A DNA stretch of 64,000 nt from a candidate division CPR3 bacterium GWF2_35_18 (GTDB lineage: Bacteria; Patescibacteriota; CPR3; GWF2-35-18). Positions 24,551-59,017 of this stretch are shown here, one piece after another. The DNA lies in NCBI GenBank assembly GCA_001771135.1, contig MESW01000003.1, positions 235,786-299,785 of the forward strand. Direction: 5' to 3'. The position numbers were made by a program, and so were the translations under genes. The number at the start of each line of letters is the position of its first letter. Within the stretch, counting starts at the first letter, position 1. The notes under the pieces were generated by a model. That model was not told the DNA's origin. It did not search any database and was given only the letters and a program-made list of their open reading frames with translations.

Positions 24551-25495
24551 TTATTTTGCTAATCTTCTAATTAAATTGGGTGAAACGTTTTGTTGGATTT
24601 TCAATAAAGAAACAATATCTGGATGATATAAAAAAACTAAGCCATCCGCAGTTTGATGTATTGCTTCAAAACCATACATAGATGCTAAACGAAAAACTTG
24701 AGAACGCGTTGATGTCCAAAACACCGCTTCTTTTGCTCCATTGTATACACCATGTTCAAAGGCAACTCTTGCAAGATTGAAGAAAGAACCTGGAACATCT
24801 CTAAAGTTAGTATCTGGATCATCAGCTCTTAGTGTTCCCATCTCATCTTCGTATAATATATTTTCTAAATTTGCTCCTCTTTCTTGAAGGGCTTGCTCTA
24901 CTTGAAGTAATTCTTGTCGACCTGAATCATTTCCTTTAAATCTTGCATTAAATATCCTATCAGAAATTCCATTCCATGAACCCACACAACATTCTACAAA
25001 ACCGCCTACAAGAGTATCTTCATTACCATACATAATTCCTAAACATGGTTTTATATCTTCTGATGGTCTTAACTCCGAAATAAATCTATCTTTTAATTCA
25101 TCTCTATTGTAATAAGGCTTTAATTCTCCATTACAACTTTGGCATATTCCACTACTACCTTGATTTAAAGGTATTATCTTCCCGCAATTAATACATTTCC
25201 AACCTTCACCCCAAATTACTTCTCCCGTATTTTTATCAATTTCATCATCTCCAAATACTTTAACATATGTATCTACCAATGAATCTATTAAAGTTTCATC
25301 AATTTTTTCCATTGAATTATAGGAATAATATCTTTCTGGAAGCTTTATTTTAGCTCTTTCTGGAGAAGATGATAATGGTAGAAATTTAGGAATTCCTTGA
25401 AGTAGTAGAGATTTGAAGCCACCAGAATCTGACCTCATAACAGGTATTGCAGCTTTTATAAATTCAGTTTCATCAAAAGGTTTTTCATCATTCAT
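24551..25495 (-). CDS. GNAT-fold-like (acyl)transferase with an inserted C4 zinc ribbon. Paralog of the next gene.
   Basis: VKVFGDDE... N-terminal motif. Zinc-ribbon insertion CINCGK...CQSCNG. C-terminal GNAT-like motif ...AVFWTSTRSQVFRLASMYGFE (N..A..lY...GF pattern). Confidence 0.45.
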   Translation of the reverse strand: MNDEKPFDETEFIKAAIPVMRSDSGGFKSLLLQGIPKFLPLSSSPERAKIKLPERYYSYNSMEKIDETLIDSLVDTYVKVFGDDEIDKNTGEVIWGEGWKCINCGKIIPLNQGSSGICQSCNGELKPYYNRDELKDRFISELRPSEDIKPCLGIMYGNEDTLVGGFVECCVGSWNGISDRIFNARFKGNDSGRQELLQVEQALQERGANLENILYEDEMGTLRADDPDTNFRDVPGSFFNLARVAFEHGVYNGAKEAVFWTSTRSQVFRLASMYGFEAIHQTADGLVFLYHPDIVSLLKIQQNVSPNLIRRLAK

Positions 25496-25585
25496 AATTC
25501 ATAACAGTATAATACTATATTTATGAAATTACTGGAAGGAATAAGACTATTATGAGGCATTTAGCCTTATTCCTTCCATTTTTAG

Positions 25586-26290
25586 TCATAACCGTGACGT
25601 TAGCTTCATTAAACGTGCGATTTTACGTTGTTTTAGATTCTGTGTGATTTTCAGTAACGGAGTAAAATCGCGATTTACAAGGAATACAATACCTTCACTT
25701 TCACATAAAGGTTCGAATCCCATGTAAACTGACAAGTTTGCAATATTGCTTTTCCATGAAGTCCAGAAAATAAGAGATTTTACTCCTTGATTGAATGCTA
25801 ATTCCAATCCTGGCCTCAACAGAAATTGAATTGGAGTTAAACCTCCTCTTGATGTCGAAGTTATAGCAAATTCATCATAGAATAATATTGAATCGCTTTT
25901 GGTATGGGGTAAATTTGCCAATAACTGCCTTACGCCAGTGAAATTGGATTTTGTTCGAAGTATTCTCTGTGATATTTGCGATTTGGGAATTAACGCTCCC
26001 CAACTAAAACCAACCACACCTAAAGGTGAAGACATGGTTGTTAAAAATCCGGATTCAATTTCGTCGTATAAACGGCATAAAATTGTTTCAGGATCATGAA
26101 TCTCATTCCAGGGAGGTTCTCCGAAAACCTGAATGTAAGCAGAAACTACCTGCTGTGCAACAGTCTCTGGACATGAATCAAAATATGAATGAAATTTTGG
26201 GGGAATTCGAACTGGGGATCCCTCAAGTGGGTAAATCTTATATGGCAATGTACCCATTCTTAGAATAGATCTAATCAACAAGTATTTCAT
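25586..26290 (-). CDS. GNAT-fold-like (acyl)transferase. Paralog of 24551-25495.
   Basis: IQVFGEPPWNE, then SRGGLTPIQFLL, then ...SLIFWTSWKSNIANLSVYMGFE. The C-terminal tails of the two paralogs are alike. GGAGAG RBS. Confidence 0.45.
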   Translation of the reverse strand: MKYLLIRSILRMGTLPYKIYPLEGSPVRIPPKFHSYFDSCPETVAQQVVSAYIQVFGEPPWNEIHDPETILCRLYDEIESGFLTTMSSPLGVVGFSWGALIPKSQISQRILRTKSNFTGVRQLLANLPHTKSDSILFYDEFAITSTSRGGLTPIQFLLRPGLELAFNQGVKSLIFWTSWKSNIANLSVYMGFEPLCESEGIVFLVNRDFTPLLKITQNLKQRKIARLMKLTSRL

Positions 26291-26406: not shown

Positions 26407-27162
26407 TTAAAAGTTTTGTGGAATATATTCCACAATTCTAAAACGAGGATATCGCACCAGATTGATTGCTGACATATAATGACACACCTCTCCTACATCT
26501 TTAATAAAATAAATCGAATTATCACTTAAAATATTAGTATTATTGTATTTCTCTTGCGCTTTTATCCAATATTGATGAAATTCTATATAATTTATAGTTA
26601 AATAGTTGATTAAGTCAGTCGTTACTTTGGTGTTCTTAGATAGTTCATAATTTGTATATCTCATAAAAAAAACTAAGTCGTTTAAAAAAAGTGTTTCCCA
26701 TCGTTCCTTTTTCATTGCTTTTTTAAATTGAGGTTGTAGCATAATTTCTAACATGTTCCGGCCTTTAAACATATTTGCGAATATTGAATTTACTCTAAAT
26801 AAATTCAATATTTTTTTGTTCCAATTATGAATGAATAAATAATCATCTTCTAAAAACGATGGATACTTAGATAATTTTAAATATGAATCTGTCTCATTTA
26901 TTGCTAATTTTACTTCTTCAGAATTAACCCTATCTTGCTGAATCCCTATTAGATACATTGCTTGTTTATCTGTTAAATCTAATACTTTCGTAATTTTTAG
27001 TAACGTTTCTTTCGTAGGGTTTATTTGACCGGATTCAACCTTAGAAATATGTCCATTAGAAGCACCAATTTCAAGCTCTAACTGTTGTTGAGTTAATCCT
27101 TTTGAAATTCGAAATTTTTGAACTTTTTCTCCAATCTGTTTTACATTTTCTTCTTTAAACAT
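26407..27162 (-). CDS. XRE-family HTH transcriptional regulator with an approximately 180-aa C-terminal domain (Rgg/RNPP-like architecture is possible)
   Basis: N-terminal HTH ISKGLTQQQLELEIGASNGHISKVESGQINP. 251 aa. Confidence 0.8.
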   Translation of the reverse strand: MFKEENVKQIGEKVQKFRISKGLTQQQLELEIGASNGHISKVESGQINPTKETLLKITKVLDLTDKQAMYLIGIQQDRVNSEEVKLAINETDSYLKLSKYPSFLEDDYLFIHNWNKKILNLFRVNSIFANMFKGRNMLEIMLQPQFKKAMKKERWETLFLNDLVFFMRYTNYELSKNTKVTTDLINYLTINYIEFHQYWIKAQEKYNNTNILSDNSIYFIKDVGEVCHYMSAINLVRYPRFRIVEYIPQNF

Positions 27163-27293
27163 ATATTGTCGGACATTAAGAAAAAGCTATGATAACGGCA
27201 TTATTATACAGAAATTAAGCTTTTTTGCCAAGAAATTTTTATTTAAAAAAAATTCTATCAACTTCAAGGTTAATATGACGCCCAAAAACACGA

Positions 27294-27317
27294 ATTTGTA
27301 TTGCATGACAAAGACAA
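27294..27317. promoter_or_regulatory. 24-nt imperfect palindromic motif ATTTGTATTGCATGACAAAGACAA in the divergent promoter region. Copy 1 of 2.
   Basis: 21 of 24 nt identical to the second copy at 27686-27711. Has TTTGT/ACAAA arms. Confidence 0.35.
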
Positions 27318-27437
27318 GTAATTTACTTTATGTTATACCGAAAAATATACTCAACATTATAAATTTGCATAAAAGAGAAGTTGAGTATAAATCGAATTGA
27401 AAATATCCTATTATAAATTGGAAAATTCAGAATTTAG

Positions 27438-27674
27438 ATGACTAAAATGACCTATTATTTACGACAACTACGCCCCAGTGAATATCGAAAATTATTGAAC
27501 CATTATTTTCCGGAATCATTCATAGATCATGAGGTTCTACGAAAATACACGCTTTTTCTTTATGAATCAGCAGTAGAACCTGATAATGATATTTATTGGG
27601 ATTTTGAGCAGTGGCTAGAAGAAAAAACTGAAGAATTTGCTACACCAGACATTGAGAGTGGCTACAAGTTTTAA
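27438..27674 (+). CDS. Small hypothetical protein (78 aa), divergent from the XRE regulator
   Basis: ORF only. Acidic, with no signal peptide. Flanked by the two 24-nt motifs. Confidence 0.3.
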   Translation: MTKMTYYLRQLRPSEYRKLLNHYFPESFIDHEVLRKYTLFLYESAVEPDNDIYWDFEQWLEEKTEEFATPDIESGYKF

Positions 27675-27685
27675 AAAAGCGTTAA

Positions 27686-27711
27686 GATTTGTATTGCGAT
27701 ACAAAGACAAA
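27686..27711. promoter_or_regulatory. Second copy of the 24-nt motif (GATTTGTATTGCGATACAAAGACAAA), upstream of secreted-protein gene 27781
   Basis: Near-palindrome TTTGTAT-tgcg-ATACAAA. Confidence 0.35.
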
Positions 27712-27780
27712 CGAATAACATTCTGATATATCTTACATATCAATGAAAAATATTAAATAAATTATTTTGAAAGGAAATTT

Positions 27781-28443
27781 ATGAAAGAAAAACTGAATCT
27801 CAAAACACTAGGTTTGATCTTTGTAGGAATATTAGTTCTAATGTCTATTGGTTATTGTGGAGGATATCTCTACACAAAATATAAAGGTAAAGCAGATAAT
27901 ATAATATCTGATAAGAATCAAGGGACTGTTGAAATAACTAAAAAGGATAATTCAAACCTAAGTATATTCAATAATACCTACTATAACTATAATTTTGAGT
28001 TTCCCAGTGACTGGATTCACAATACCACAACTTCAGAGTATGAAGATGATCCGATTACCTCAAATCAGGTCACAGACATGCATACCTCAAACGGTGAATT
28101 TGTCCAAGTTATGACCTGGAATAACGATCAAGAGGATCTTTCTCTTCTTGAGTGGTATGAGAAATATGATACTACCCATACCATTCTAGATAATCCCCCT
28201 ACAAATACTAATGCTGAGATTGCTGGTTTGAATACAATATTTCTTTACCGTCCTACCTTACAAGCTCCGGCGGATATTACCGTTATCTTCGATAAAGATG
28301 GAACCATCTTCAGACTTTGGTATGTCGCCAACGAAAGCGGAGTTGACTACGAAGACTTCCTACATCTTCTACAAACTTTCGAATTCAATGGTCAGGTAAC
28401 CTCTGATCAAATACCGGAGGTAACAAGAGAAAGCTTAAAATAA
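27781..28443 (+). CDS. Membrane-anchored/secreted protein. Its C-terminal 150-aa domain is duplicated at the N-terminus of 30063-32402.
   Basis: Signal anchor MKEKLNLKTLGLIFVGILVLMSIGY. The domain YNYNFEFPSDWIHNTTTSEYEDDPITSNQVTDMHT...LQTFEFNGQVTSDQIPEVT is about 85 percent identical to the paralog. Confidence 0.6.
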   Translation: MKEKLNLKTLGLIFVGILVLMSIGYCGGYLYTKYKGKADNIISDKNQGTVEITKKDNSNLSIFNNTYYNYNFEFPSDWIHNTTTSEYEDDPITSNQVTDMHTSNGEFVQVMTWNNDQEDLSLLEWYEKYDTTHTILDNPPTNTNAEIAGLNTIFLYRPTLQAPADITVIFDKDGTIFRLWYVANESGVDYEDFLHLLQTFEFNGQVTSDQIPEVTRESLK

Positions 28444-28468
28444 CCCTGCCTTAACATTGCTCATTAAA

Positions 28469-28656
28469 AATTAAATCGTTCGGTGAGAAGTTAGAGAATA
28501 GAAAAAGTATTCTACTTTCTGCTTCTCACCGAAAAAATACGGAGAGATACAATCCATTCCCTTTTTAGTTGACCCCTTAAAAGGTCAGGAGAGAAACTCG
28601 ATGAAGACCCGACAACTGAAATTTCAGCATAAACAAAAGATTTCATATATTTTTTG
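28469..28656 (+). repeat. Conserved approximately 145-bp promoter/leader cassette, copy 1. It has an 11-bp-stem hairpin, a leader, an AGGAGAGA RBS and an ATG, followed by a 21-aa remnant ORF MKTRQLKFQHKQKISYIFCLF.
   Basis: Aligns with 29939-30085. The hairpin is TCGGTGAGAAG...CTTCTCACCGA. Downstream identity is high through ATG plus about 20 nt. Confidence 0.6.
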
Positions 28657-28702
28657 CTTGTTCTGAAAAACATTAAATAAATTATTTTGAAAAGGAAAAT
28701 CT

Positions 28703-29851
28703 ATGAAAGAAAAAATTAACGTCAAAATACTAGGTTCAATTCTCGTCGGAATATTAATCGTTGTTGGAATTAGTTATGGTGGATATAAGTTGTTGAATAA
28801 AGAAAAAGCTAATGAAAATATTAATCAGTCAATTAAAAATGCAGAAATTGCTTTTAGGAGAAATGGAAATGTTTATATTTTAAATGACGGACAAGAAATT
28901 CAATTAACTACTGATGGGAAATGTCTAGTATCATTTACTGAAGATAAAATTAATAATTTTATCAATCCAATTTATGATTACCCTTGTTACAAAATATTAG
29001 ATTCATCAAACCAAAATCTAATCTTACTAAAATATTATAAGTACCCAAAATATCAAGAACAACTATTAGTCTACAGTTTAGATACTCAATCTTTTCATTA
29101 CTTTAATAATAACCCTGATTTTGAAACACCTATTGCTTGGAATACTCAAAAAGATAAATTTGTTTTTAAATCAGAATATAATATCATTAAAGTGGATACA
29201 AATGATTTTTCTGAAGAGAAATTACTTACATATGAACCAATAGTTGGTTGCGGAGGGATGACGAATAGTGAATACGGATTTATATATGATGAAGAGGTTG
29301 GTACTTTCAGAATGACTGGAGGAGAAACTTTAATTTGGGATGAAGATAATAATATAATTGTAACAAATACGAATTGTGATTATTCTGGCATTAAATCTTT
29401 CTATTACCAACAAAATACAAATATTGATTGGCCATATAATCTTGTAAGAGCTAAATCTTCAAATAATAGTTTAAAAGTCGCAATATTTGATGATAAAAAA
29501 TTAGATATATATAACCTTGAGGCACAGATTATTAAGTCATATAAATCTCCTGTGATAGGTAAATTACCACTTTGGACAAATTACGATAGTATAGTTTTCG
29601 TTTCTGATAAAGATATCTGGCAATTTGATATTATTACAGGAGAATTTTTAAAGTTATATTCATTACAAAACGGCTTTCCTGTAAAGCTATCTGTCAAAAA
29701 TAATATCCTCTATTTTTCTATACTTCGTGAATATCAAAACATTACCCAAGTGGATATAGGCTCATTAAGAGAAATATCTAAACTTAATTTGGAAACCAAG
29801 CAATCTATAAAAATTTTAGATAATGCTGATTCTCCAACTGTAATAAAGTGA
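28703..29851 (+). CDS. Membrane-anchored/secreted hypothetical protein (382 aa)
   Basis: Signal anchor MKEKINVKILGSILVGILIVVGISY. Shares the 5' cassette (27748-27800 versus 28668-28725) with gene 27781. Confidence 0.6.
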   Translation: MKEKINVKILGSILVGILIVVGISYGGYKLLNKEKANENINQSIKNAEIAFRRNGNVYILNDGQEIQLTTDGKCLVSFTEDKINNFINPIYDYPCYKILDSSNQNLILLKYYKYPKYQEQLLVYSLDTQSFHYFNNNPDFETPIAWNTQKDKFVFKSEYNIIKVDTNDFSEEKLLTYEPIVGCGGMTNSEYGFIYDEEVGTFRMTGGETLIWDEDNNIIVTNTNCDYSGIKSFYYQQNTNIDWPYNLVRAKSSNNSLKVAIFDDKKLDIYNLEAQIIKSYKSPVIGKLPLWTNYDSIVFVSDKDIWQFDIITGEFLKLYSLQNGFPVKLSVKNNILYFSILREYQNITQVDIGSLREISKLNLETKQSIKILDNADSPTVIK

Positions 29852-29852
29852 T

Positions 29853-29900
29853 ACTCTACGGGTGCCGCTCAGCTTCGCTTCGCTTTACCCGTAGTATTTA
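29853..29900 (+). terminator. Terminator-like hairpin after gene 28703-29851
   Basis: CTACGGGT...ACCCGTAG stem with a GC-rich 23-nt loop, followed by tattta. Confidence 0.3.
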
Positions 29901-29938
29901 GTAAGGAAAGAATAACATACTTGCACCTTTAAAATATC

Positions 29939-30085
29939 ATTCGGTGAGAAAACAGAGGTCAGAACAGAAGTTTCTAACTTCTTCTTCTCACCGAAAAATA
30001 CGGAGAGATACAAAACCCATCCTTTGTTAGTTGACCCTTTAAAAGATCAGGAGAGAGTCTCGATGAGTACCAAACAACTGAATAC
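29939..30085 (+). repeat. Conserved promoter/leader cassette, copy 2, driving the CHAP-domain protein gene
   Basis: The TCGGTGAGAA...TTCTCACCGA hairpin has a different inner loop that keeps its own inner stem. The leader is near-identical through CAGGAGAGAGTCTCGATG. Confidence 0.6.
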
Positions 30086-32402
30086 TGTGTCCACAGGAAG
30101 GCGATACTTTTATCTCGCCCTGGTAGTAACTCTACTTACCAGCGTGATTGGAGCCACTACTACTCAGCCGGTCAAAGCAAATGAAGGAGAACCACCGTCA
30201 AATTACCAAGTCTTTCTGCCTCTGATTCAAAAAGAAACCACAGAAAGTAAATGGCAGCTTTTTCAAAACTCGGAGTATCAATATACCTTTGAATTTCCCA
30301 GTGACTGGATCTACAACACCACAACCTCAGAGTATGAAGATGATCCGATTACCTCAAATCAAGTCACGGACATGCACACCCCAAATGGCGAGTTTGTCCA
30401 AGTTATGACATGGAATAACGATCAGGAAAACCTATCTCTGCTCGAATGGTATGAAAAGTATGATTCTTTTCATACCTCTCTGGATAATCCACCAGCAAAT
30501 CTCAACGCACAAATTGCAGGCTTGGATAGTATATACTTTAATCGTCTTACACTCCAAGCCCCGGCGGATATTACCGCGATCTTTAATAAAGACGGTGCTA
30601 TCTTCAGAATCTGGTATGTGGCTAATGAAGATGGAATTGACTATGAAAACTTTCTGCACCTTCTGCAAACCTTCGAATTTGATGGCCAAACAACCTCCGA
30701 TCAAATTCCAGATGTAACGCCAGACATTTTGGTCAAAGAAGTTTCGCCAAACGCTATCGAAGCCAATACCTGTAATAACAGAACCGATCCCAACGGTAAT
30801 CCATATGCATGTTTATGTAGCGGAGCCTATGGTAACTGCACCTGGTGGGCAAACTATATGCGACCTGACCTCCAAAGTATTAATTTTGGTGATGCTAAAG
30901 ATTGGAATGATGTAGTTTTAAATCATTCAAAACTAAAATACCTCCTTCCAGTCAATGGTACTCCAGAACTTGGCGCCATTGCCGTTTTTGAAGCTTATTA
31001 CCCCTGGGGAGGAATTGGAAACTTAGGACACGTTGCTTATGTCACTGGACACAACTCCCAAGACAACACGATAAGTATCTCTCAGATGTCTTGCGGCACC
31101 AACGGTATCCAGGTATATAACAATATCCCTATTGTTTCCGGACAAATCAGCTTCATTCACGGTTCCCCCACAATCTTTGAACACTCAAATTTTCAAGGAG
31201 ATTGGAGTCGTTTTACAGTTGATCTCCTTAATTACTGGGGTGAAAGATACATGTACTCTGAAGATGGCAACTATGCTTACCTCAATGACAGCGCTTCTTC
31301 AGTATGGATACCTCCAGATTACAGTGTCAGTCTTTTCAAAAATAACAACTGGCAATGCCCAGCAAATACCGGGTACCTTGATAACGGAGATCTATATGGT
31401 AGTGATGGTTACCCAGTTCTGGATACCCGATGGAGTAATTTCACATCACTAATGTTTTCTGATAATACCTCCATGAATGATGCTGTCTCTGGACATCAGA
31501 TTGGACACTTTGTCTGCCTTTCGCCTGGTTGCGGCTCCCTTCAGTCTTTCAATTCGGAATACAATAACGAACATACAAGTCCAGACACAATCTATGGAAT
31601 GTGCAGTGGAGCAACACCACCTCACCTCTATCAAGCGTCAGATCTGGTTGTGCTAAATAACCCTGCTCCCGCAGGTATAGATAATACCTTTACCTTCAGT
31701 ATCTACAATGCTGGTGATCTGACATTCAACATGTCTGAAATCTTTGTCTCTGGACACCTTTATGACGGCGGAGCATGGAAAGCCTGGGCGACTGTCCAAA
31801 ACATTGGACCTGGACAAATAAAGACCTTTATCGCTTCTGCCCCAATGTGGGGAGACAAAATCGGATCCTGGTACATCGATGGGATTGTTTACAAATCTAC
31901 ATCCGGTAATTTCTATAATTTACCTGGAAATGGATTCCTGCAAACTCAAAGCTTCACTGTTTCTAATACCGGAGTTTGGCTGTTTCAAGGGCTTCGATAT
32001 GAAGGAATTGGAGAACGATTTTCAAGTAACGATCCCAATCTTTCTAACAATCGTATCGACAACGATACGACAACATCAATTAAAATCTACACCGGGTGGT
32101 ATACCGTTGTCTGTAAAAATCAAAGTTATGGAGGGAGATGCGAATTTTTTGCTTCCTCAGATAATGATCTGAGAAATAACATCGTTGGGAGTAACACGAT
32201 TTCTTCAATCGTGGTATTAAAAAACTGGATGTTTATCAAAGGATCAACTGCGACAATTTACATCATTGAAAACGGTCAAAAAAAAGGTATTCCTTCCTGG
32301 AAAGAATATCTCTGTCTCGGAGGTCAACCCGGAGGTTATATCACTCTACTTGATACAATAGTGTCTCTTATTCCAACTGGACAGGTAAAACACTGTCCGT
32401 GA
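30063..32402 (+). CDS. Secreted/anchored protein with a duplicated N-terminal domain, a CHAP (cysteine/histidine-dependent amidohydrolase/peptidase) domain and a beta-rich C-terminal region
   Basis: Start revised to the ATG at 30063, which has an AGGAGAGAG RBS. The ORF-track start is an upstream TTG. Signal anchor YFYLALVVTLLTSVIGA. CHAP Cys in GNCTWWANY and His in LGHVAYVTGHN. Confidence 0.7.
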   Translation: MSTKQLNTVSTGRRYFYLALVVTLLTSVIGATTTQPVKANEGEPPSNYQVFLPLIQKETTESKWQLFQNSEYQYTFEFPSDWIYNTTTSEYEDDPITSNQVTDMHTPNGEFVQVMTWNNDQENLSLLEWYEKYDSFHTSLDNPPANLNAQIAGLDSIYFNRLTLQAPADITAIFNKDGAIFRIWYVANEDGIDYENFLHLLQTFEFDGQTTSDQIPDVTPDILVKEVSPNAIEANTCNNRTDPNGNPYACLCSGAYGNCTWWANYMRPDLQSINFGDAKDWNDVVLNHSKLKYLLPVNGTPELGAIAVFEAYYPWGGIGNLGHVAYVTGHNSQDNTISISQMSCGTNGIQVYNNIPIVSGQISFIHGSPTIFEHSNFQGDWSRFTVDLLNYWGERYMYSEDGNYAYLNDSASSVWIPPDYSVSLFKNNNWQCPANTGYLDNGDLYGSDGYPVLDTRWSNFTSLMFSDNTSMNDAVSGHQIGHFVCLSPGCGSLQSFNSEYNNEHTSPDTIYGMCSGATPPHLYQASDLVVLNNPAPAGIDNTFTFSIYNAGDLTFNMSEIFVSGHLYDGGAWKAWATVQNIGPGQIKTFIASAPMWGDKIGSWYIDGIVYKSTSGNFYNLPGNGFLQTQSFTVSNTGVWLFQGLRYEGIGERFSSNDPNLSNNRIDNDTTTSIKIYTGWYTVVCKNQSYGGRCEFFASSDNDLRNNIVGSNTISSIVVLKNWMFIKGSTATIYIIENGQKKGIPSWKEYLCLGGQPGGYITLLDTIVSLIPTGQVKHCP

Positions 32403-32418
32403 AAGGAGAATCACAGAT

Positions 32419-32504
32419 CAGGCTGGGGACAACGGCGATTCCGTTGTACCACAATGACAATCAAGCTTGCTTTCTTTAAAAGCTTTGCTCGTTGTCCCCA
32501 GCCT
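32419..32504. repeat. Palindromic element, copy 1 (GGCTGGGGACAACGG...CCGTTGTCCCCAGCC, 14-bp arms with an inner hairpin)
   Basis: Lies in a convergent intergenic region. The second copy is at 32674-32737. Confidence 0.55.
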
Positions 32505-32673
32505 GTACTTTCTTTGTCTTTCCTCTCCATAAAAATGACAAAGAAAAAAGTATCGTAGATTCAAAATCTACCCGATGAGTCCTCTTTCGCAAAAATTACG
32601 AAGGACGAAATACTTTTGAATTAGTACCAAAAATTGTATAGATTAATAATAAAGTTGTTTTAGGAAAGATTGA

Positions 32674-32737
32674 CAGGCTAGGGACAACGGCTTACCCCGT
32701 TGTACCACCAATGAAGCTTTGCTCGTTGTCCCTAGTC
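32674..32737. repeat. Palindromic element, copy 2 (GGCTAGGGACAACGG...CGTTGTCCCTAGTC). Has compensatory arm changes and an approximately 24-bp internal deletion.
   Basis: G to A in the left arm is matched by C to T in the right arm, which preserves pairing. Confidence 0.55.
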
Positions 32738-32771
32738 TATCTCTTTTCTAAACTAAATTATACTAAATATC

Positions 32772-53822: not shown

Positions 53823-56135
53823 CTATTTCAATACTCCAATAATATCAACCTTACCTCCACAGAAACGAGTAATAAACTCAACGCTTAACTGTAAAGCTTC
53901 CCAGACTTTTTGCGGAGCAACTTCATATACCCCATCAACGTTAATCCAAATATCCCTAGTATCATCTTTTACCAAAGTTCTCTGCGCATCACGATAGTTA
54001 AAATCTAAATTATAAGGCCCTTTTTTATCAAAATAACAGATCTCCCCATTTTTTAGAACAGTTTCTTTTTCGTCTCCATGTAGTAAAATTTTCTCCCCAC
54101 CGGAAGCTGCTTTTAAAAGTGTTGGAAATTGAATATTCTGAAGATCAAAAGCTCCCACGGAAACATGTGTTTTCATCACGACTAGGTTATACGCATCTAC
54201 AAGAGTATTTACACTATATAGCTCTTTGCCTTGCGCCAGTCGTCGTAACAAAGCCTCAGGAGAAGGTCGTCGACTATGCCAGTCAACTCCCATTGCGCGA
54301 TAAAGTTTACGATAACTTAGCAAATTTGGTGATTCTTTTAAACTTTCAACCGTAATCTTACTTAAAGATGCCAGAAATTCTTTTTTGAACTCTGTAAGTT
54401 CTGGTAAAGTTTTGACTATTTTGACGTCTCTAATAATTGCAACTCCCACAGAAATTGAGGGATACTTTTCTTGTAACGATGGATCAATCTGAATTAAATC
54501 TGTATTTCGAAAAAGAGCAAGATCAGAAATAGTTTTTGCTTTTTCTTTATTAACTTTAACGTTTTTAAATTTCTCTGCCACTAAATCTAAATCTTGACTC
54601 AAGATTAAAGCACCTGCCTTAGGACCATATTCTTTACCCAATAATGATTGATAAATAGCAGAAAAAGTTTCTTTAGGTTTAAGGTTTTGACTTTTTCCTA
54701 ACTGATACAAATGATTTTGTATTTCTGTGTCTGATTTAGGATTAACCTTTAGTTCTTTAACATACCCGCTTGCTAAGCTCAAAAAGGCAGTTTGTTCATT
54801 TGATAATCTTGATATAACTGATATTGGGGTATCTTTTTTTACTTCTAATCTAAAATCTTCCGGAGCGTAATTTTTGAGCCACATCTCTGCATACTGTTTT
54901 CGTTCTTTCAGAATATCCAGTTCGACTTTGGTAAGTTTGGCTCTTTTTTCCTTGGCAAAAAAATCAGCTAAAAACTCTACTTTCGGATCTTGAATCGCTT
55001 TCGCGATATCTAAAAATCTCGGAAGAAATTTTGGAGTTTGATAATCTTTTTTATCGTCAATCTGCGCTACTTCATAAATCCGGCCAAAATCATCTGTATT
55101 ACCCTGCTCCCAATAAACATGAGCACAGCGATCATACTCATCAAAAAGATCCGGAATTGTCATACCTTCGGGATCAAAATTGGCTTGTCTGTTATAACGA
55201 TTGCGGGCAAATAGAAATCGTCCAATTGTCGGCGGAAATATTTTTACAAATTCCGAAGCTGAAGTTCCCACACCTTTTGAAGAGGACATCTTCTTCCCTT
55301 TAATCAGAAACCATTCATATGGAATATCGTAAGGATTGGGATAATTATAAACGTCTTTGAGGATTTGCACTGCCATATCGCGAGAACCACCGGCTGAAGA
55401 GTGATCCTTACCTGCGCCTTCGACTGTAATCCCGACTGTCTTCCAATGAGCCGGCCAATCTACCTTCCACATTAGTTTACCGGTACCATTAAATGGTGAA
55501 ACCTTTCCCTCATAACCACAACCTATTGCCCATTTCACCAAATTAGGTACACAGCGGAATGAAACTTCTTTTCCATCCCAATCAAAGACTTCAGTTGTCC
55601 CCACTTTTCCACATTTTGGACAAACAGGCTGAAAAGGATACCAATGTTTTGGTTTATCATAATTACCGACTTCTTTATAAATAAGACGAATCAAATCAAC
55701 TTTATCCAAAGCGGTTTTAATGGCATCATTCATCTTCCCTGATTGATACAGTTCATGTGACCAAAGTATTTCCGGCTTCGCTCCCAACTTTTGCATCGCT
55801 TCAATAAATTCATACGCATACTGATGCCCAAGGCTTTTAGATTTTTTATCCGGCGAGGGAATTGTGAAAAGTGGTTTCCCCATATGTTTCTCATATTCTT
55901 TTTGATCAAGGTAAGAAGGTAAGCCATCCATAGGATCAAAATCATTAAACACGTAGGTATACTTCGCCTTAACTCCCAGGTAAAGTAATGATTTATAGAT
56001 AAAGTCATGAAGAAGCACTCCAACCAAAGAACCCACATGAATCCGACCGGAAGGCGTCTTCATATCATCAACCCACTGGAGTGGTTCACGTCGAGTATTT
56101 TTTATTTCTGTAGCAAGTTTATCAGCCCAAAACAA
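53823..56135 (-). CDS. lysK: Class I lysyl-tRNA synthetase fused to a C-terminal B3/4 (PheRS-beta editing-type) domain. TTG start.
   Basis: MFWADKL..PSGRIHVGSLVG (HIGH region), KMSSSKGVG (KMSKS). The C-terminal approximately 250 aa, ...PNLLSYRKLYRAMGVD..RPSPEALLRRLAQGKELYSVNTLVDAYNLVVMKTHVSVGAFDL...GGEKILLHGDEK..., match B3/4-domain hallmarks. Single uninterrupted 770-aa frame. Confidence 0.8.
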   Translation of the reverse strand: MFWADKLATEIKNTRREPLQWVDDMKTPSGRIHVGSLVGVLLHDFIYKSLLYLGVKAKYTYVFNDFDPMDGLPSYLDQKEYEKHMGKPLFTIPSPDKKSKSLGHQYAYEFIEAMQKLGAKPEILWSHELYQSGKMNDAIKTALDKVDLIRLIYKEVGNYDKPKHWYPFQPVCPKCGKVGTTEVFDWDGKEVSFRCVPNLVKWAIGCGYEGKVSPFNGTGKLMWKVDWPAHWKTVGITVEGAGKDHSSAGGSRDMAVQILKDVYNYPNPYDIPYEWFLIKGKKMSSSKGVGTSASEFVKIFPPTIGRFLFARNRYNRQANFDPEGMTIPDLFDEYDRCAHVYWEQGNTDDFGRIYEVAQIDDKKDYQTPKFLPRFLDIAKAIQDPKVEFLADFFAKEKRAKLTKVELDILKERKQYAEMWLKNYAPEDFRLEVKKDTPISVISRLSNEQTAFLSLASGYVKELKVNPKSDTEIQNHLYQLGKSQNLKPKETFSAIYQSLLGKEYGPKAGALILSQDLDLVAEKFKNVKVNKEKAKTISDLALFRNTDLIQIDPSLQEKYPSISVGVAIIRDVKIVKTLPELTEFKKEFLASLSKITVESLKESPNLLSYRKLYRAMGVDWHSRRPSPEALLRRLAQGKELYSVNTLVDAYNLVVMKTHVSVGAFDLQNIQFPTLLKAASGGEKILLHGDEKETVLKNGEICYFDKKGPYNLDFNYRDAQRTLVKDDTRDIWINVDGVYEVAPQKVWEALQLSVEFITRFCGGKVDIIGVLK

Positions 56136-56589
56136 AGTAAGTTGTCAGTAATTAGTAATCGGTGTCTTATAAAAAAACCCGAAAACCAATACTTAACCTC
56201 CACTAAAATCTTTATTGATAACTGTTTCCTATCATACCAAAAGCTTGATCCAAAAACCAGAGCAAAATATTTACAATTTATTTTCTAGTTTTTGTAATTG
56301 TCGGACAAAAAACAAAAAGTTCTTGACGGCAATATACCCTGTAGATTATTATACCTATAGTTGATCTATTTTAGATCAACTTTTTCATTGCACATCAAAA
56401 GCTGCTTATCCCCAAAAAGCAATCTGGAAGAAGATTTCTATTGAGACTAATTGAATAAAATTTGACTGTCATTTTGACTGAAACTGAGAGATTAATTATC
56501 TGTTAATTTTTCTGTTCCGTCAAAATGACCTTAAAAAAGGCATTTTCAATTTTTGCTTACTAGTGAGTTTTTATACTCGAAAGGAGAAT

Positions 56590-57700
56590 TCTGTTGAAAG
56601 GAGGTGAGGCTGGCTATGAACGCCAATAATACCGTGTGATACTACCTGGCGCCCGCCCCTAGAGGTCACATACCCCGATGGGGCAAATACTCCTAAAGAG
56701 GAGTTCATCTAACCTTTGGTATCGACTGCGCGATCGCGGTACGATGTAATGACCAAAGGATCTTAGTCAGCTAAGTGAGTGGACATGCGTCCTGCTTTTT
56801 CATACTGGCTGACGCCATTTTTCTTTTTGCTAAGGTCCGCGGAGACCTGGAGGCCGACAATGAGTGCACAGATCTTGTGGCTCGATATCTGTATCGGCAA
56901 GTTGTTCATGGCCCGCGTCTTCCGGGATGGTTGCACAACGGTTGAATCCGTTTCGTCTGCCCGGAGCATCTGTGGCCAAATCACCCCCGCGGACACACGA
57001 TGGTATCGCCCAACCTCACGCCCGGAGGGAATTAACCCGACTATCGCCGGGTTTGGCTAGCAGGACTATCTGTGTATCTTTGCGCAAACGCGCTCAATAG
57101 ACGCCCAGTGGGCTGAAATTGTTGCGTCCATGCGCTGCGGATTATCAATCTATTAGTAAGGAGGTGCTCTATCTTCGATACTAACAAGATTCACTCGCTC
57201 GTGTTGGATCTTTCGAAAAGAAAGTTGTGATTCAATCAACTGTGTTTAATCGGCAAAAACTGGAGATCGATCACTCGAAATGTTGAATACCAATAATGTA
57301 CACTCACACCTGTCGCCTTTGACCGCCGATGATCTGCACCTGACCGTCAACCGCCGCGCCGACTACAACCTGAGCCAGTAGCCCAACGATCAATTGCTAC
57401 TGCGAGGTTTTTCGCGAGGTTTGACTAACTCACTTACATTGACCTTGGAGAGGGATATGAGGGACTCATGTCCCTCTCCATGCATTCTCTTGGCCGACGC
57501 GCCAAGATTCAGGGGGAAACAAGGGAGAGACAATTTTTAGACGAGATGGGAATACATTTTTCTGGGGGATTTAAAGTTCTACCCGCCTACCGGTCCGCCG
57601 GAGCCACTTTTACCCACAATCCACAGATTACCAAACCCATCTCGTCTCTCCCAACTCTTTCAAAAACTAATTCCAAATCAACAATATAATATTTCTCGTG
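56590..57700. other. GC-rich approximately 1.1-kb island inside a 1.77-kb gene-free gap. It contains hairpins, a strong SD plus a 7-codon mini-ORF, and short GC3-biased ORF fragments. Candidate foreign-origin or decayed DNA, or a structured RNA.
   Basis: Base composition is visibly about 50 percent GC or more, against an approximately 33 percent background. No ORF exceeds 93 aa. Third-codon-position G/C enrichment is seen in several short frames. Confidence 0.5.
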
Positions 57701-57907: not shown

Positions 57908-59017
57908 TTATCTTAATCTTTTAAAAATCTCGGTATAAACTTTTTCCACATATTCTAATTCTTTAACTTCAACATATTCATCGACTTGATGTGCCTGTAC
58001 AATACTTCCGGCTCCAAAAACAATTGTATTTATACCTGCTTCTTGTAAATCTGCCGCTTCCGTGTAGTATCGGGCTCCAGTTAGTGTAATCTGCGAATCA
58101 ACTTTTTTAATTATTTCAATCATCGAATGGTTATCAACACCCGCTTGAAATGAAGGAAATTTATAAATCTGTTCCACCCTAACTTTATCTTTCAAGACCT
58201 CATCCGTATTCACTAAATTTTGGACTCCCCACAAAATCTGATCCGCATTATATTCTGGAATATAACGAAAATCAATTTTGACTTCACAATAATCTGGAAC
58301 AGTATTTAATACCGAAGTATCTTTTCCACCCTGAATATAACCGATACTAGAAACTCCATTACCCAAAAACTCGTTTTGCTCTTTTTGTAAAATATTAACA
58401 TAGTACTCTTGAAATATATTTAAAAAGTGATTCGCCAGATAGATACTGTTTTCTCCTTCTTCCGGACGCGAAGAATGTACAGATTTTCCTATAAAAGAAA
58501 CTTTCAATCCCGTAATTCCCATGTGCGCAACCAGAATCTCGCGATCAGTTGGTTCGGCAACAAGAGCTTCCTCAATATTTTTATGAAAATCACTTTCAAT
58601 AAAAACCTTAATTCCTTTTCCGGTTTGTTCTTCATCAGCGCTAAAAAGAAAAAGGCAGTTTTCCGGTTTGTTTTTTAAAATCGCTCCAGCTATTGCGGCC
58701 AGAGAACCTTTATTATCACAAGCTCCTCGACCATAAAGTTTTCCGTTCTGAATCTTTCCAGAAAATGGGTCATATAACCATTTGTTTTTATCACCAACAG
58801 ATACGGTATCAAGATGCACATTAAAAAGATATCTTGGTCTTACGCCAAAATAAACAAGCAAATTACTCCGATTATTCTCAAAGCTTTGGATAATACATTT
58901 GCCTTTCGTATTCTTCTCAAAAAAATCTTGCAGATATTCTACAACTTTTATTTCATTTCCGGGTGGGTTCTGACTATCGATCGCAATTAAATTTTGGAGG
59001 ATCTTAACTGTTTTCAT
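57908..59017 (-). CDS. M20-family metallopeptidase/deacylase (ArgE/DapE/YodQ-like)
   Basis: HLDTVSVGD, GRGACDNKGSLAA and SADEEQTG metal-binding motifs. Confidence 0.8.
   Translation of the reverse strand: MKTVKILQNLIAIDSQNPPGNEIKVVEYLQDFFEKNTKGKCIIQSFENNRSNLLVYFGVRPRYLFNVHLDTVSVGDKNKWLYDPFSGKIQNGKLYGRGACDNKGSLAAIAGAILKNKPENCLFLFSADEEQTGKGIKVFIESDFHKNIEEALVAEPTDREILVAHMGITGLKVSFIGKSVHSSRPEEGENSIYLANHFLNIFQEYYVNILQKEQNEFLGNGVSSIGYIQGGKDTSVLNTVPDYCEVKIDFRYIPEYNADQILWGVQNLVNTDEVLKDKVRVEQIYKFPSFQAGVDNHSMIEIIKKVDSQITLTGARYYTEAADLQEAGINTIVFGAGSIVQAHQVDEYVEVKELEYVEKVYTEIFKRLR

Follow-up and report, generated by a model that had tools for sequence, protein, structure and literature searches.

Why should a bacterium keep, upstream of a cell-wall hydrolase gene, a second copy of that gene's 5' region which is severed from the gene itself? 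The question is raised by a 64,000-nucleotide (nt) stretch of the genome of the candidate division CPR3 bacterium GWF2_35_18 (contig MESW01000003.1, positions 235,786 to 299,785; hereafter the window, in which positions are counted from the first letter). Here a non-coding element of roughly 145 nt, composed of a hairpin and a translation leader, precedes the gene for a CHAP-domain protein (copy 2, H2) and recurs further upstream (copy 1, H1), where its start codon opens a remnant open reading frame (ORF). The element is a lineage-specific intergenic hairpin with a translation leader, both real and selected, and copy 1 is a recombination scar, namely one junction of a larger duplication of about 920 base pairs (bp).

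Structure of the element

A BLAST-type self-comparison of 27300-32500 aligned the two copies (coordinates in Table 1) with 79% identity over 167 nt, and the core from the hairpin to the ATG is 81% identical in a MAFFT alignment, which confirms the pair of leader copies described in the first-pass annotation of this DNA. A third copy is carried by L016, a 1045-nt contig from a related population. In each copy the parts follow one another in the same order: hairpin, a run of A residues, AATACGGAGAGATACAA, TTAGTTGACC, an AGGAG ribosome-binding site (RBS) and, 9 nt on, the ATG. The hairpin is 55-56 nt long and its base, TTCGGTGAGAA/TTCTCACCGAA, is invariant in H1, H2 and L016 (TTCGGTG...CACCGAA in all three). 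Within the window, TCGGTGAGAA and its complement find exact matches at the two hairpin sites only, and the 17-nt box AATACGGAGAGATACAA likewise has just two sites. The Shine-Dalgarno (SD) sequence and ATGA at the end of the element are preserved in three of three copies, as ATGAAGAC in H1 and L016 and as ATGAGTAC in H2. Downstream of the hairpin the leader folds no better than shuffled sequences (z from -0.3 to +1.2).

The inner stems quoted by the annotation (AGAATA/TATTCT and AGAAGTT/AACTTCT) are present in the sequence. Its 11-bp stem is perfect in copy 1, whereas copy 2 has 10 bp, or 11 if the flanking T/A pair is counted, and the leader of about 90 nt that it called near-identical is in fact 80-86% identical.

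Purifying selection on both copies

Although non-coding, the element is 81% identical between H1 and H2, 85% between H1 and L016 and 82% between H2 and L016. The four-fold degenerate sites of duplicated coding sequence at the same locus are only 46% identical (21/46) between the two copies of a protein domain termed X (X1 and X2), and 49% identical (31/63) between ORF A, the gene that precedes H1, and P0003, its counterpart on L016; the differences from the element are significant by Fisher's test (p = 2e-5 and 5e-7). The substitutions are also unevenly placed, with 5 of the 38 paired hairpin columns varying as against 12 of the 14 unpaired ones (p = 2e-6), and identity is no more than 65-69% in the spacer that separates the stop codon from the hairpin. 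That the element is better conserved than four-fold sites and that substitutions avoid its stem shows purifying selection, by which both copies are maintained. Intragenomic gene conversion cannot account for this conservation, since H1 is conserved across populations (85%).

The hairpin covariation that had been claimed holds in part. Among the three sequences there is one compensatory change (A-U to G-C) and one change from G-U to G-C, while the inner stems are homologous in register, with TAGAA/TTCTA preserved in all copies, so that real covariation goes no further. Much the same applies to the proposal of a cis-regulatory RNA or promoter module: conservation beyond neutral sites and the avoidance of the stem by substitutions speak for a functional element, while the RNA or promoter role itself is putative, there being only three copies, no Rfam family and no further copies in the sequence searched.

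A tandem segmental duplication

The locus contains three collinear repeat pairs, P, X and H, with nucleotide identities of 84%, 79% and 79%, respectively. Along the DNA the order is P1, anchor a, X1, stop codon, H1, seven CHAP codons, a segment termed S, P2, anchor a, the body of ORF B, a GC-rich hairpin, H2, anchor b, X2 and the CHAP domain. A 21-nt core, ATTAAATAAATTATTTTGAAA, has P1 and P2 as its sole occurrences. The repeats are direct, collinear and adjacent, their period is constant (920 nt between P1 and P2, 918 nt in L016), and the CHAP start is truncated after about seven codons at the junction, as is characteristic of a tandem segmental duplication. In agreement with the earlier description of copy 1 as a decapitated gene start, the RBS, the ATG and about seven codons of the CHAP gene are retained and homology then ends. 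The 21-codon remnant ORF is present and its start resembles the CHAP protein; its peptide, however, is not conserved, given that a 1-nt indel leads to a stop after 10 codons in L016. No mobile-element genes were found within 10 kb on either side by Pfam annotation of the genes.

Segment S, which follows the truncated start, has no significant match in either of two candidate sources. The idea that it represents diverged CHAP codons 8-25 was rejected as the alignment is no better than with shuffled sequences, and as a copy of the region upstream of P1 it gives only a weak collinear match (p about 0.2).

The related population represented by L016 sheds light on the order of events. P0003, encoded by this contig, shares 75% amino acid (aa) identity with ORF A, and the contig aligns at 85% to window positions 28318-28727, from the end of X through the stop codon, H, the remnant start and S to P. 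Beyond P, it continues into another ORF A-type gene and not into ORF B. The first 127 nt of L016 are identical to its last 127 nt, 127 being the k of the assembler, and the contig is therefore a closed loop with a period of 918 nt. Such a loop means at least two tandem ORF A-type genes with identical 3' ends, or a tandem array of higher copy number, or a circle. The arrangement is the one expected straight after a tandem duplication of leader a (the leader of ORF A), ORF A, H and the CHAP start. In the population of the window itself, the locus was found in about 20 groundwater metagenome contigs from the Rifle aquifer and in the metagenome-assembled genome GCA_001771165.1 in the NCBI collection, with 100% identity to the window across both leader copies and a uniform arrangement in all of the roughly 20 contigs; contigs recruited via ribosomal protein L9 end short of the locus.

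These comparisons shift the earlier suggestion that recombination had replaced the gene body behind copy 1. The recombination scar is there, but since in the sister population the unit is flanked by ORF A-type genes on both sides, the replaced body is more likely that of the next gene, ORF B having taken the place of a second ORF A, and nothing attached to the ATG of copy 1 need have been replaced. The element would originally have been a conserved intergenic control region, with an ORF A-type gene on one side and the CHAP hydrolase gene on the other. A tandem-type segmental duplication with a period of about 920 bp would then have copied leader a, ORF A, the control region and the first seven or so CHAP codons, giving rise to copy 1 with its headless start, and in the lineage of the window the second ORF A body was probably exchanged later for the ORF B body along with ORF B's own 3' hairpin. 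The locus resembles known tandem segmental duplications in its direct, collinear and adjacent repeats, in its constant period of 918-920 nt with a headless 5' gene fragment at the junction, and in a sister population that has the unit between two like genes. It departs from them in that the second gene body has been swapped for the unrelated ORF B, in that the junction partner, segment S, is untraceable, and in that the duplicated non-coding part has been kept by selection and not left to decay.

Searches for further copies and known families

The first-pass annotation had called for a search for further copies, and none was found in about 77 kb of DNA or in the public collections scanned, apart from two matches at chance level. 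A covariance model (R1) was built from H1, H2 and L016 and run with filters off on the window; a third copy turned up neither there nor in about 13 kb of additional flanking sequence (L019-L024). Its next-best match, with 20 bits, is an unrelated hairpin followed by a GGAG-rich stretch at 56469-56599. A hairpin-pattern scan of genome contigs from species representatives, among which the source genome is not included, returned two matches only, in Nitrospira and Rhizobium, where about two are expected by chance. Metagenome contigs contained nothing with the DNA pattern of the invariant box or with the X-domain profile, scans of viral contigs gave nothing, and word-indexed protein searches led back to the CHAP protein, ORF A and P0003 and otherwise only to a fragment on L018, a contig that looks chimeric. 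A literature search produced nothing relevant to the element.

Comparison of the whole window with Rfam 15 yielded no matches at gathering thresholds, which served as the criterion, the families considered including ydaO-yuaA, FourU and L20 leader. Relaxing the search of 27000-31000 to E <= 10 gave as the best overlap an L20 leader on the minus strand, with 18.2 bits as against a threshold of 58.7. A dispersed palindromic repeat, akin to repetitive extragenic palindromic (REP) sequences or miniature inverted-repeat transposable elements, was rejected because the arm occurs at two sites only and the roughly 77 kb hold no third copy. On three copies, the definition of a new regulatory RNA class is not warranted.

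Possible functions of the element

What, then, is being selected? Our working interpretation, to which we give a little less than an even chance, is that of an intergenic control region, copied by tandem-type duplication, in which an intercistronic stem-loop serving as decay barrier or processing point is combined with a translation leader. The stem-loop of about 22 bp is probably transcribed as an intercistronic structure because all three genes are co-directional. There it would hinder RNA decay or serve as its processing point, shielding the upstream cistron at its 3' end, the downstream cistron at its 5' end or both, and the invariant GGAGAG box together with the true AGGAG-ATG region would recruit ribosomes. 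At copy 1, translation by these ribosomes would be limited to a short, unconserved ORF upstream of ORF B. The sequence comparisons establish the duplication architecture and the selection on stem and box, while we infer the action at the RNA level and the role as decay barrier from the co-directional genes, the lack of a U-tract, the orphan GGAGAG before the true SD and the long hairpins that end other genes of the cluster, which lie at 29856-29894 after ORF B and at 32419-32505 after the CHAP gene. Stem-loops that serve as decay barriers include the 5' stem-loop of Escherichia coli ompA, the malE-malF REP hairpins, the Bacillus subtilis aprE leader and the Bacillus thuringiensis cryIIIA STAB-SD. 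The present element shares with them a long stable hairpin without U-tract between co-directional genes and an orphan SD-like GGAGAG well upstream of the real SD. It differs in that its stem is not biased towards the mRNA strand and in having only two copies in the genome region sampled, which do not make a dispersed family.

Several observations weigh against this interpretation. The minus strand folds more strongly than the plus strand in H2 (-27.8 vs -23.9 kcal/mol) and L016 (-32.2 vs -25.0 kcal/mol), and an advantage of the minus strand in two of three copies is not what an RNA element on the plus strand predicts. The leader past the hairpin has no significant fold, yet it contains the 17-nt invariant box, which looks more like a recognition site for a protein or a polymerase. 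The interpretation presupposes that the three genes are co-transcribed and leaves segment S without an explained origin, and the three copies, all from two closely related populations, make covariation statistics impossible.

The main rival, unlikely though it appears to us, is a combination of terminator and promoter, in which the hairpin ends the upstream transcript despite the missing U-tract and the box and the sequence adjacent to it form the promoter of the downstream gene. Promoter hexamers would be TTCTCA ... GATACAAT/GATACAAA, leaving the remaining 40 nt or so as the 5' untranslated region. In H1 and L016 no other structure intervenes between the ORF A stop codon and the hairpin, which begins 33-36 nt further on, and the termination of other cluster genes by long hairpins fits in with this idea. 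So do the conservation of the 17-nt box in sequence but without predicted pairing, as would be the case for a polymerase or factor site, and a strand-neutral stem, which suits an element that is not tuned to one RNA strand. On the other hand, a U-tract is missing on both strands: the stem is followed by four to six A residues on the plus strand and by CGATTTAA, TGATATTT or GGAATTAA on the minus strand, a search of 27100-30300 on both strands detected no terminator-like sites, and this organism does use the canonical form, as the hairpin and TTTTTT at the L9 gene (36087-36101) illustrate. A promoter scan found no sigma-70-like site inside the element, and the candidate hexamers lie 17 to 19 nt apart, depending on the copy. 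Moreover, the H2 hairpin would be redundant with the hairpin at the end of ORF B, yet it is conserved. An intrinsic, Rho-independent terminator in the strict sense is rejected on account of the missing U-tract; such terminators, in which a run of U comes within 0-2 nt of a GC-rich stem, have in common with the element a stable stem-loop shortly after a stop codon, whereas the stem here is long (about 22 bp) and AT-rich and not short and GC-rich.

Less probable again is a regulated riboregulator, in which the leader would switch translation of the hydrolase by way of a CsrA-like protein binding two GGA boxes, of temperature through pairing of a U-run with the SD, or of a ligand. Leader control is frequent in peptidoglycan hydrolase genes, an example being the ydaO/c-di-AMP riboswitch, and like that leader the element is of similar length and lies upstream of a gene for a cell-wall hydrolase (CHAP). 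Two GGAGAGA boxes are located about 48 nt apart, one of them being the SD; the 3' arm TTCTCACC can be seen in the sequence to pair with GGAGAGAA at 7/8 positions, and alifold pairs UUUUU with the SD region in 3/3 copies. Unlike the ydaO leader, however, the element matches no Rfam family even at E = 10, lacks a conserved multi-stem aptamer and a wider distribution, and apart from its single hairpin is unstructured, with a leader fold energy no better than that of shuffled sequence. The main hairpin, in turn, is far too stable to switch unaided.

A neutral relic is disfavoured and, in our estimate, slightly less probable than the riboregulator. Copy 1 would then be left over from the duplication and in decay, and its likeness to copy 2 would be due only to common ancestry or to gene conversion. 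The identity of the leaders (79-81%) is indeed numerically like that of the duplicated coding segments overall (79-84% at the nucleotide level), and the remnant peptide is not conserved. But the four-fold sites of those coding segments are only 46-49% identical, the conservation of H1 across two populations lies beyond the reach of conversion within a genome, and the concentration of substitutions in unpaired positions is not that of a decaying sequence.

A recombination site acting at the DNA level is a shade less probable still. A recombinase would recognise the hairpin, folded or double-stranded, and move or amplify cassettes of genes for exported proteins, with the L016 loop as an excised or amplified cassette. 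Hairpins follow each of two successive ORFs, with ORF B exactly between the two copies; the invariant stem base and the variable yet paired centre recall attC-type sites, the stem does not favour the mRNA strand, and L016 assembles as a closed 918-bp loop. Nevertheless, the homology of H1 and H2 extends about 90 nt past the hairpin through the SD, the ATG and seven codons, no hairpin lies to the left of ORF A, about 77 kb contain but two copies, and all of the roughly 20 contigs of the population have the same arrangement. The low probability that we assign to recognition at the DNA level follows from the repeat boundaries (27744/28664 and about 28620), which do not coincide with the hairpin. 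An integron attC site proper is rejected. The element is comparable to one as an imperfect palindrome of 55-56 nt after an ORF with a conserved base, a variable paired centre and conserved bulge positions, but its base reads TTCGG...CCGAA and not RYYYAAC...GTTRRRY, no integrase, transposase or other recombinase lies within 10 kb on either side, the roughly 77 kb covered contain no attC array, and the repeat extends far past the palindrome into the translation leader. The most specific version, a non-integron cassette system in a bacterium of the candidate-phyla-radiation type with the hairpin-leader as its recombination site and the 918-bp loop of L016 as the excised or amplified cassette, is the least probable of these readings; if true, it would mean that genes for anchored surface proteins are amplified and swapped beside a cell-wall hydrolase.

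Three further candidates were dropped: a minus-strand terminator or antisense RNA (no conserved U-tract, no plausible minus-strand promoter in the shared part), a sigma-70 promoter upstream of or inside the element (matches weak and not conserved), and an operator for the neighbouring XRE-type regulator (arms 33-34 bp apart, with a spacing of the TGACC/GGTCA repeat that differs between the copies).

Genes and other features of the locus

ORF A is a chimera of an ORF B-type anchor and the CHAP X domain, for its N-terminus matches that of ORF B (43% aa identity) and the rest matches CHAP residues 62-223 (77% aa identity with the N-terminal part of the CHAP protein). The CHAP protein had been given as 792 aa, a length that counts from an upstream in-frame TTG; the most likely start, the one preceded by the RBS, is the ATG at 30063, which yields 779 aa in agreement with public gene calls. 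An exhaustive profile search for the X domain (window positions 27952-28440 and 30246-30731) revealed a small uncharacterised family of 66 representative proteins (P0008-P0070), some of them anchored proteins of about 220 aa in which the domain stands alone, the others large CHAP proteins that begin with the domain and have variable C-termini. Weak Pfam matches to PsbP_2 (PF18933) point to a PsbP-like fold, and an AlphaFold model computed from a three-sequence alignment is too poor for use, with a predicted local distance difference test score of 45. Positions 1-1359 of contig L018 contain an internal X-domain fragment (ITSNQVTDMHT...IFY) within unrelated GC-rich sequence, and this contig is probably a chimeric assembly or a pseudogene of another organism.

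Table 1. Features of the hairpin-leader locus, in order of position in the window
Feature	Coordinates	Strand	Description
P1	27744-27834	+	Leader a and start of the ORF A signal/anchor; paralogue of 28664-28756, 84% over 93 nt
Duplication unit	27744-28663	+	About 920 bp: leader a, ORF A, H1, truncated CHAP start, segment S; P1-P2 spacing 920 nt, L016 period 918 nt
ORF A	27781-28443	+	220 aa; anchor at the N-terminus resembling ORF B's, X domain (PsbP-like) resembling CHAP residues 62-223
X repeat pair	27982-28424 and 30276-30718		Protein domain; 79% nt, 77% aa identity
H1	28457-28620	+	Hairpin-leader copy 1; covariance-model match, 142 bits
Hairpin 1	28479-28533	unassigned	About 22 bp; -28.6 kcal/mol, z = -8.0 vs dinucleotide shuffles
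Invariant box	28536-28552	+	17 nt, AATACGGAGAGATACAA, with orphan SD-like GGAGAG; identical in H1, H2 and L016
Small stem	28569-28591	+	TTGACC/GGTCAG abutting the AGGAG RBS (28587-28591); alifold columns 96-115; weak
Remnant ORF	28601-28666	+	21 codons, first 7 homologous to the CHAP start; TGA stop from the next repeat
Segment S	28622-28663	+	95% (40/42) identical to L016, with a 39-nt exact run
P2	28664-28756	+	Leader a and start of the ORF B anchor; repeat of P1
ORF B	28703-29851	+	382 aa; beta-propeller-like body (DPPIV_N match); holds the place of the sister population's second ORF A
GC-rich hairpin	29856-29894	+	Directly after the ORF B stop codon, CTACGGGT...ACCCGTAG then TATTT; read from sequence
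H2	29921-30082	+	Hairpin-leader copy 2, working 5' region of the CHAP gene; self-comparison, covariance model
Hairpin 2	29940-29995	unassigned	-23.9 kcal/mol (+), -27.8 (-); z = -4.9 vs dinucleotide shuffles
CHAP-domain protein	30063-32402	+	779 aa; signal/anchor b, X domain (30246-30731), CHAP domain, long C-terminal region; Pfam CHAP 7e-12; public gene calls

Most contigs of the window's population (loci L002-L013) break at scattered points within ORF B, and on the scaffold L007 an indel near 29070-29125 splits the gene into ORFs of 157 and 219 aa, with about 1% divergence downstream. Both observations suggest that strain-level variation is concentrated in ORF B.

Another structured repeat is found in two copies downstream of the CHAP gene, at 32419-32505 and 32672-32741, the first of which begins 17 nt past the CHAP stop codon. 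A GC-rich stem of 16-17 bp, CAGGCTrGGGACAACG/CGTTGTCCCyAGyCT, encloses a conserved inner arm, CCGTTGTACCAC, and each copy is followed by a T-rich tail on the plus strand. Their folding energies are -45 and -34 kcal/mol, with z-scores of -8.5 and -7.2.

Two regions further away also merit mention. At 24551-26290 two adjacent minus-strand genes (314 and 234 aa) adjoin a gene for a pyruvoyl-type histidine decarboxylase; they look paralogous by eye, with a C-terminal motif ...FWTS...GFE...VFL, and a 17-bp hairpin with 94% complementarity (25533-25578) lies between them. About 1 kb at 56600-57600 has a GC content of 47-55% in a genome of about 33% GC and contains no ORF of at least 100 aa. It is part of the 1.77 kb that separate two minus-strand genes, one resembling a class-I lysyl-tRNA synthetase (53823-56135) and the other a peptidase (57908-59017). 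The stretch gave no Rfam match at E <= 1 and no tRNA, and it may represent either an insert of foreign DNA or a large structured non-coding RNA.

Implications

The value of the element is limited by its confinement to one narrow lineage. Within this lineage, the locus is a clean example of how new anchored surface proteins are built, by duplication of a block of anchor, domain and control region followed by a swap of the gene body. Almost nothing has been charted of the non-coding regulatory elements in ultra-small groundwater bacteria, organisms never cultured on their own, and a short, mutation-resistant element beside a peptidoglycan hydrolase gene offers a concrete target for metatranscriptome mapping.

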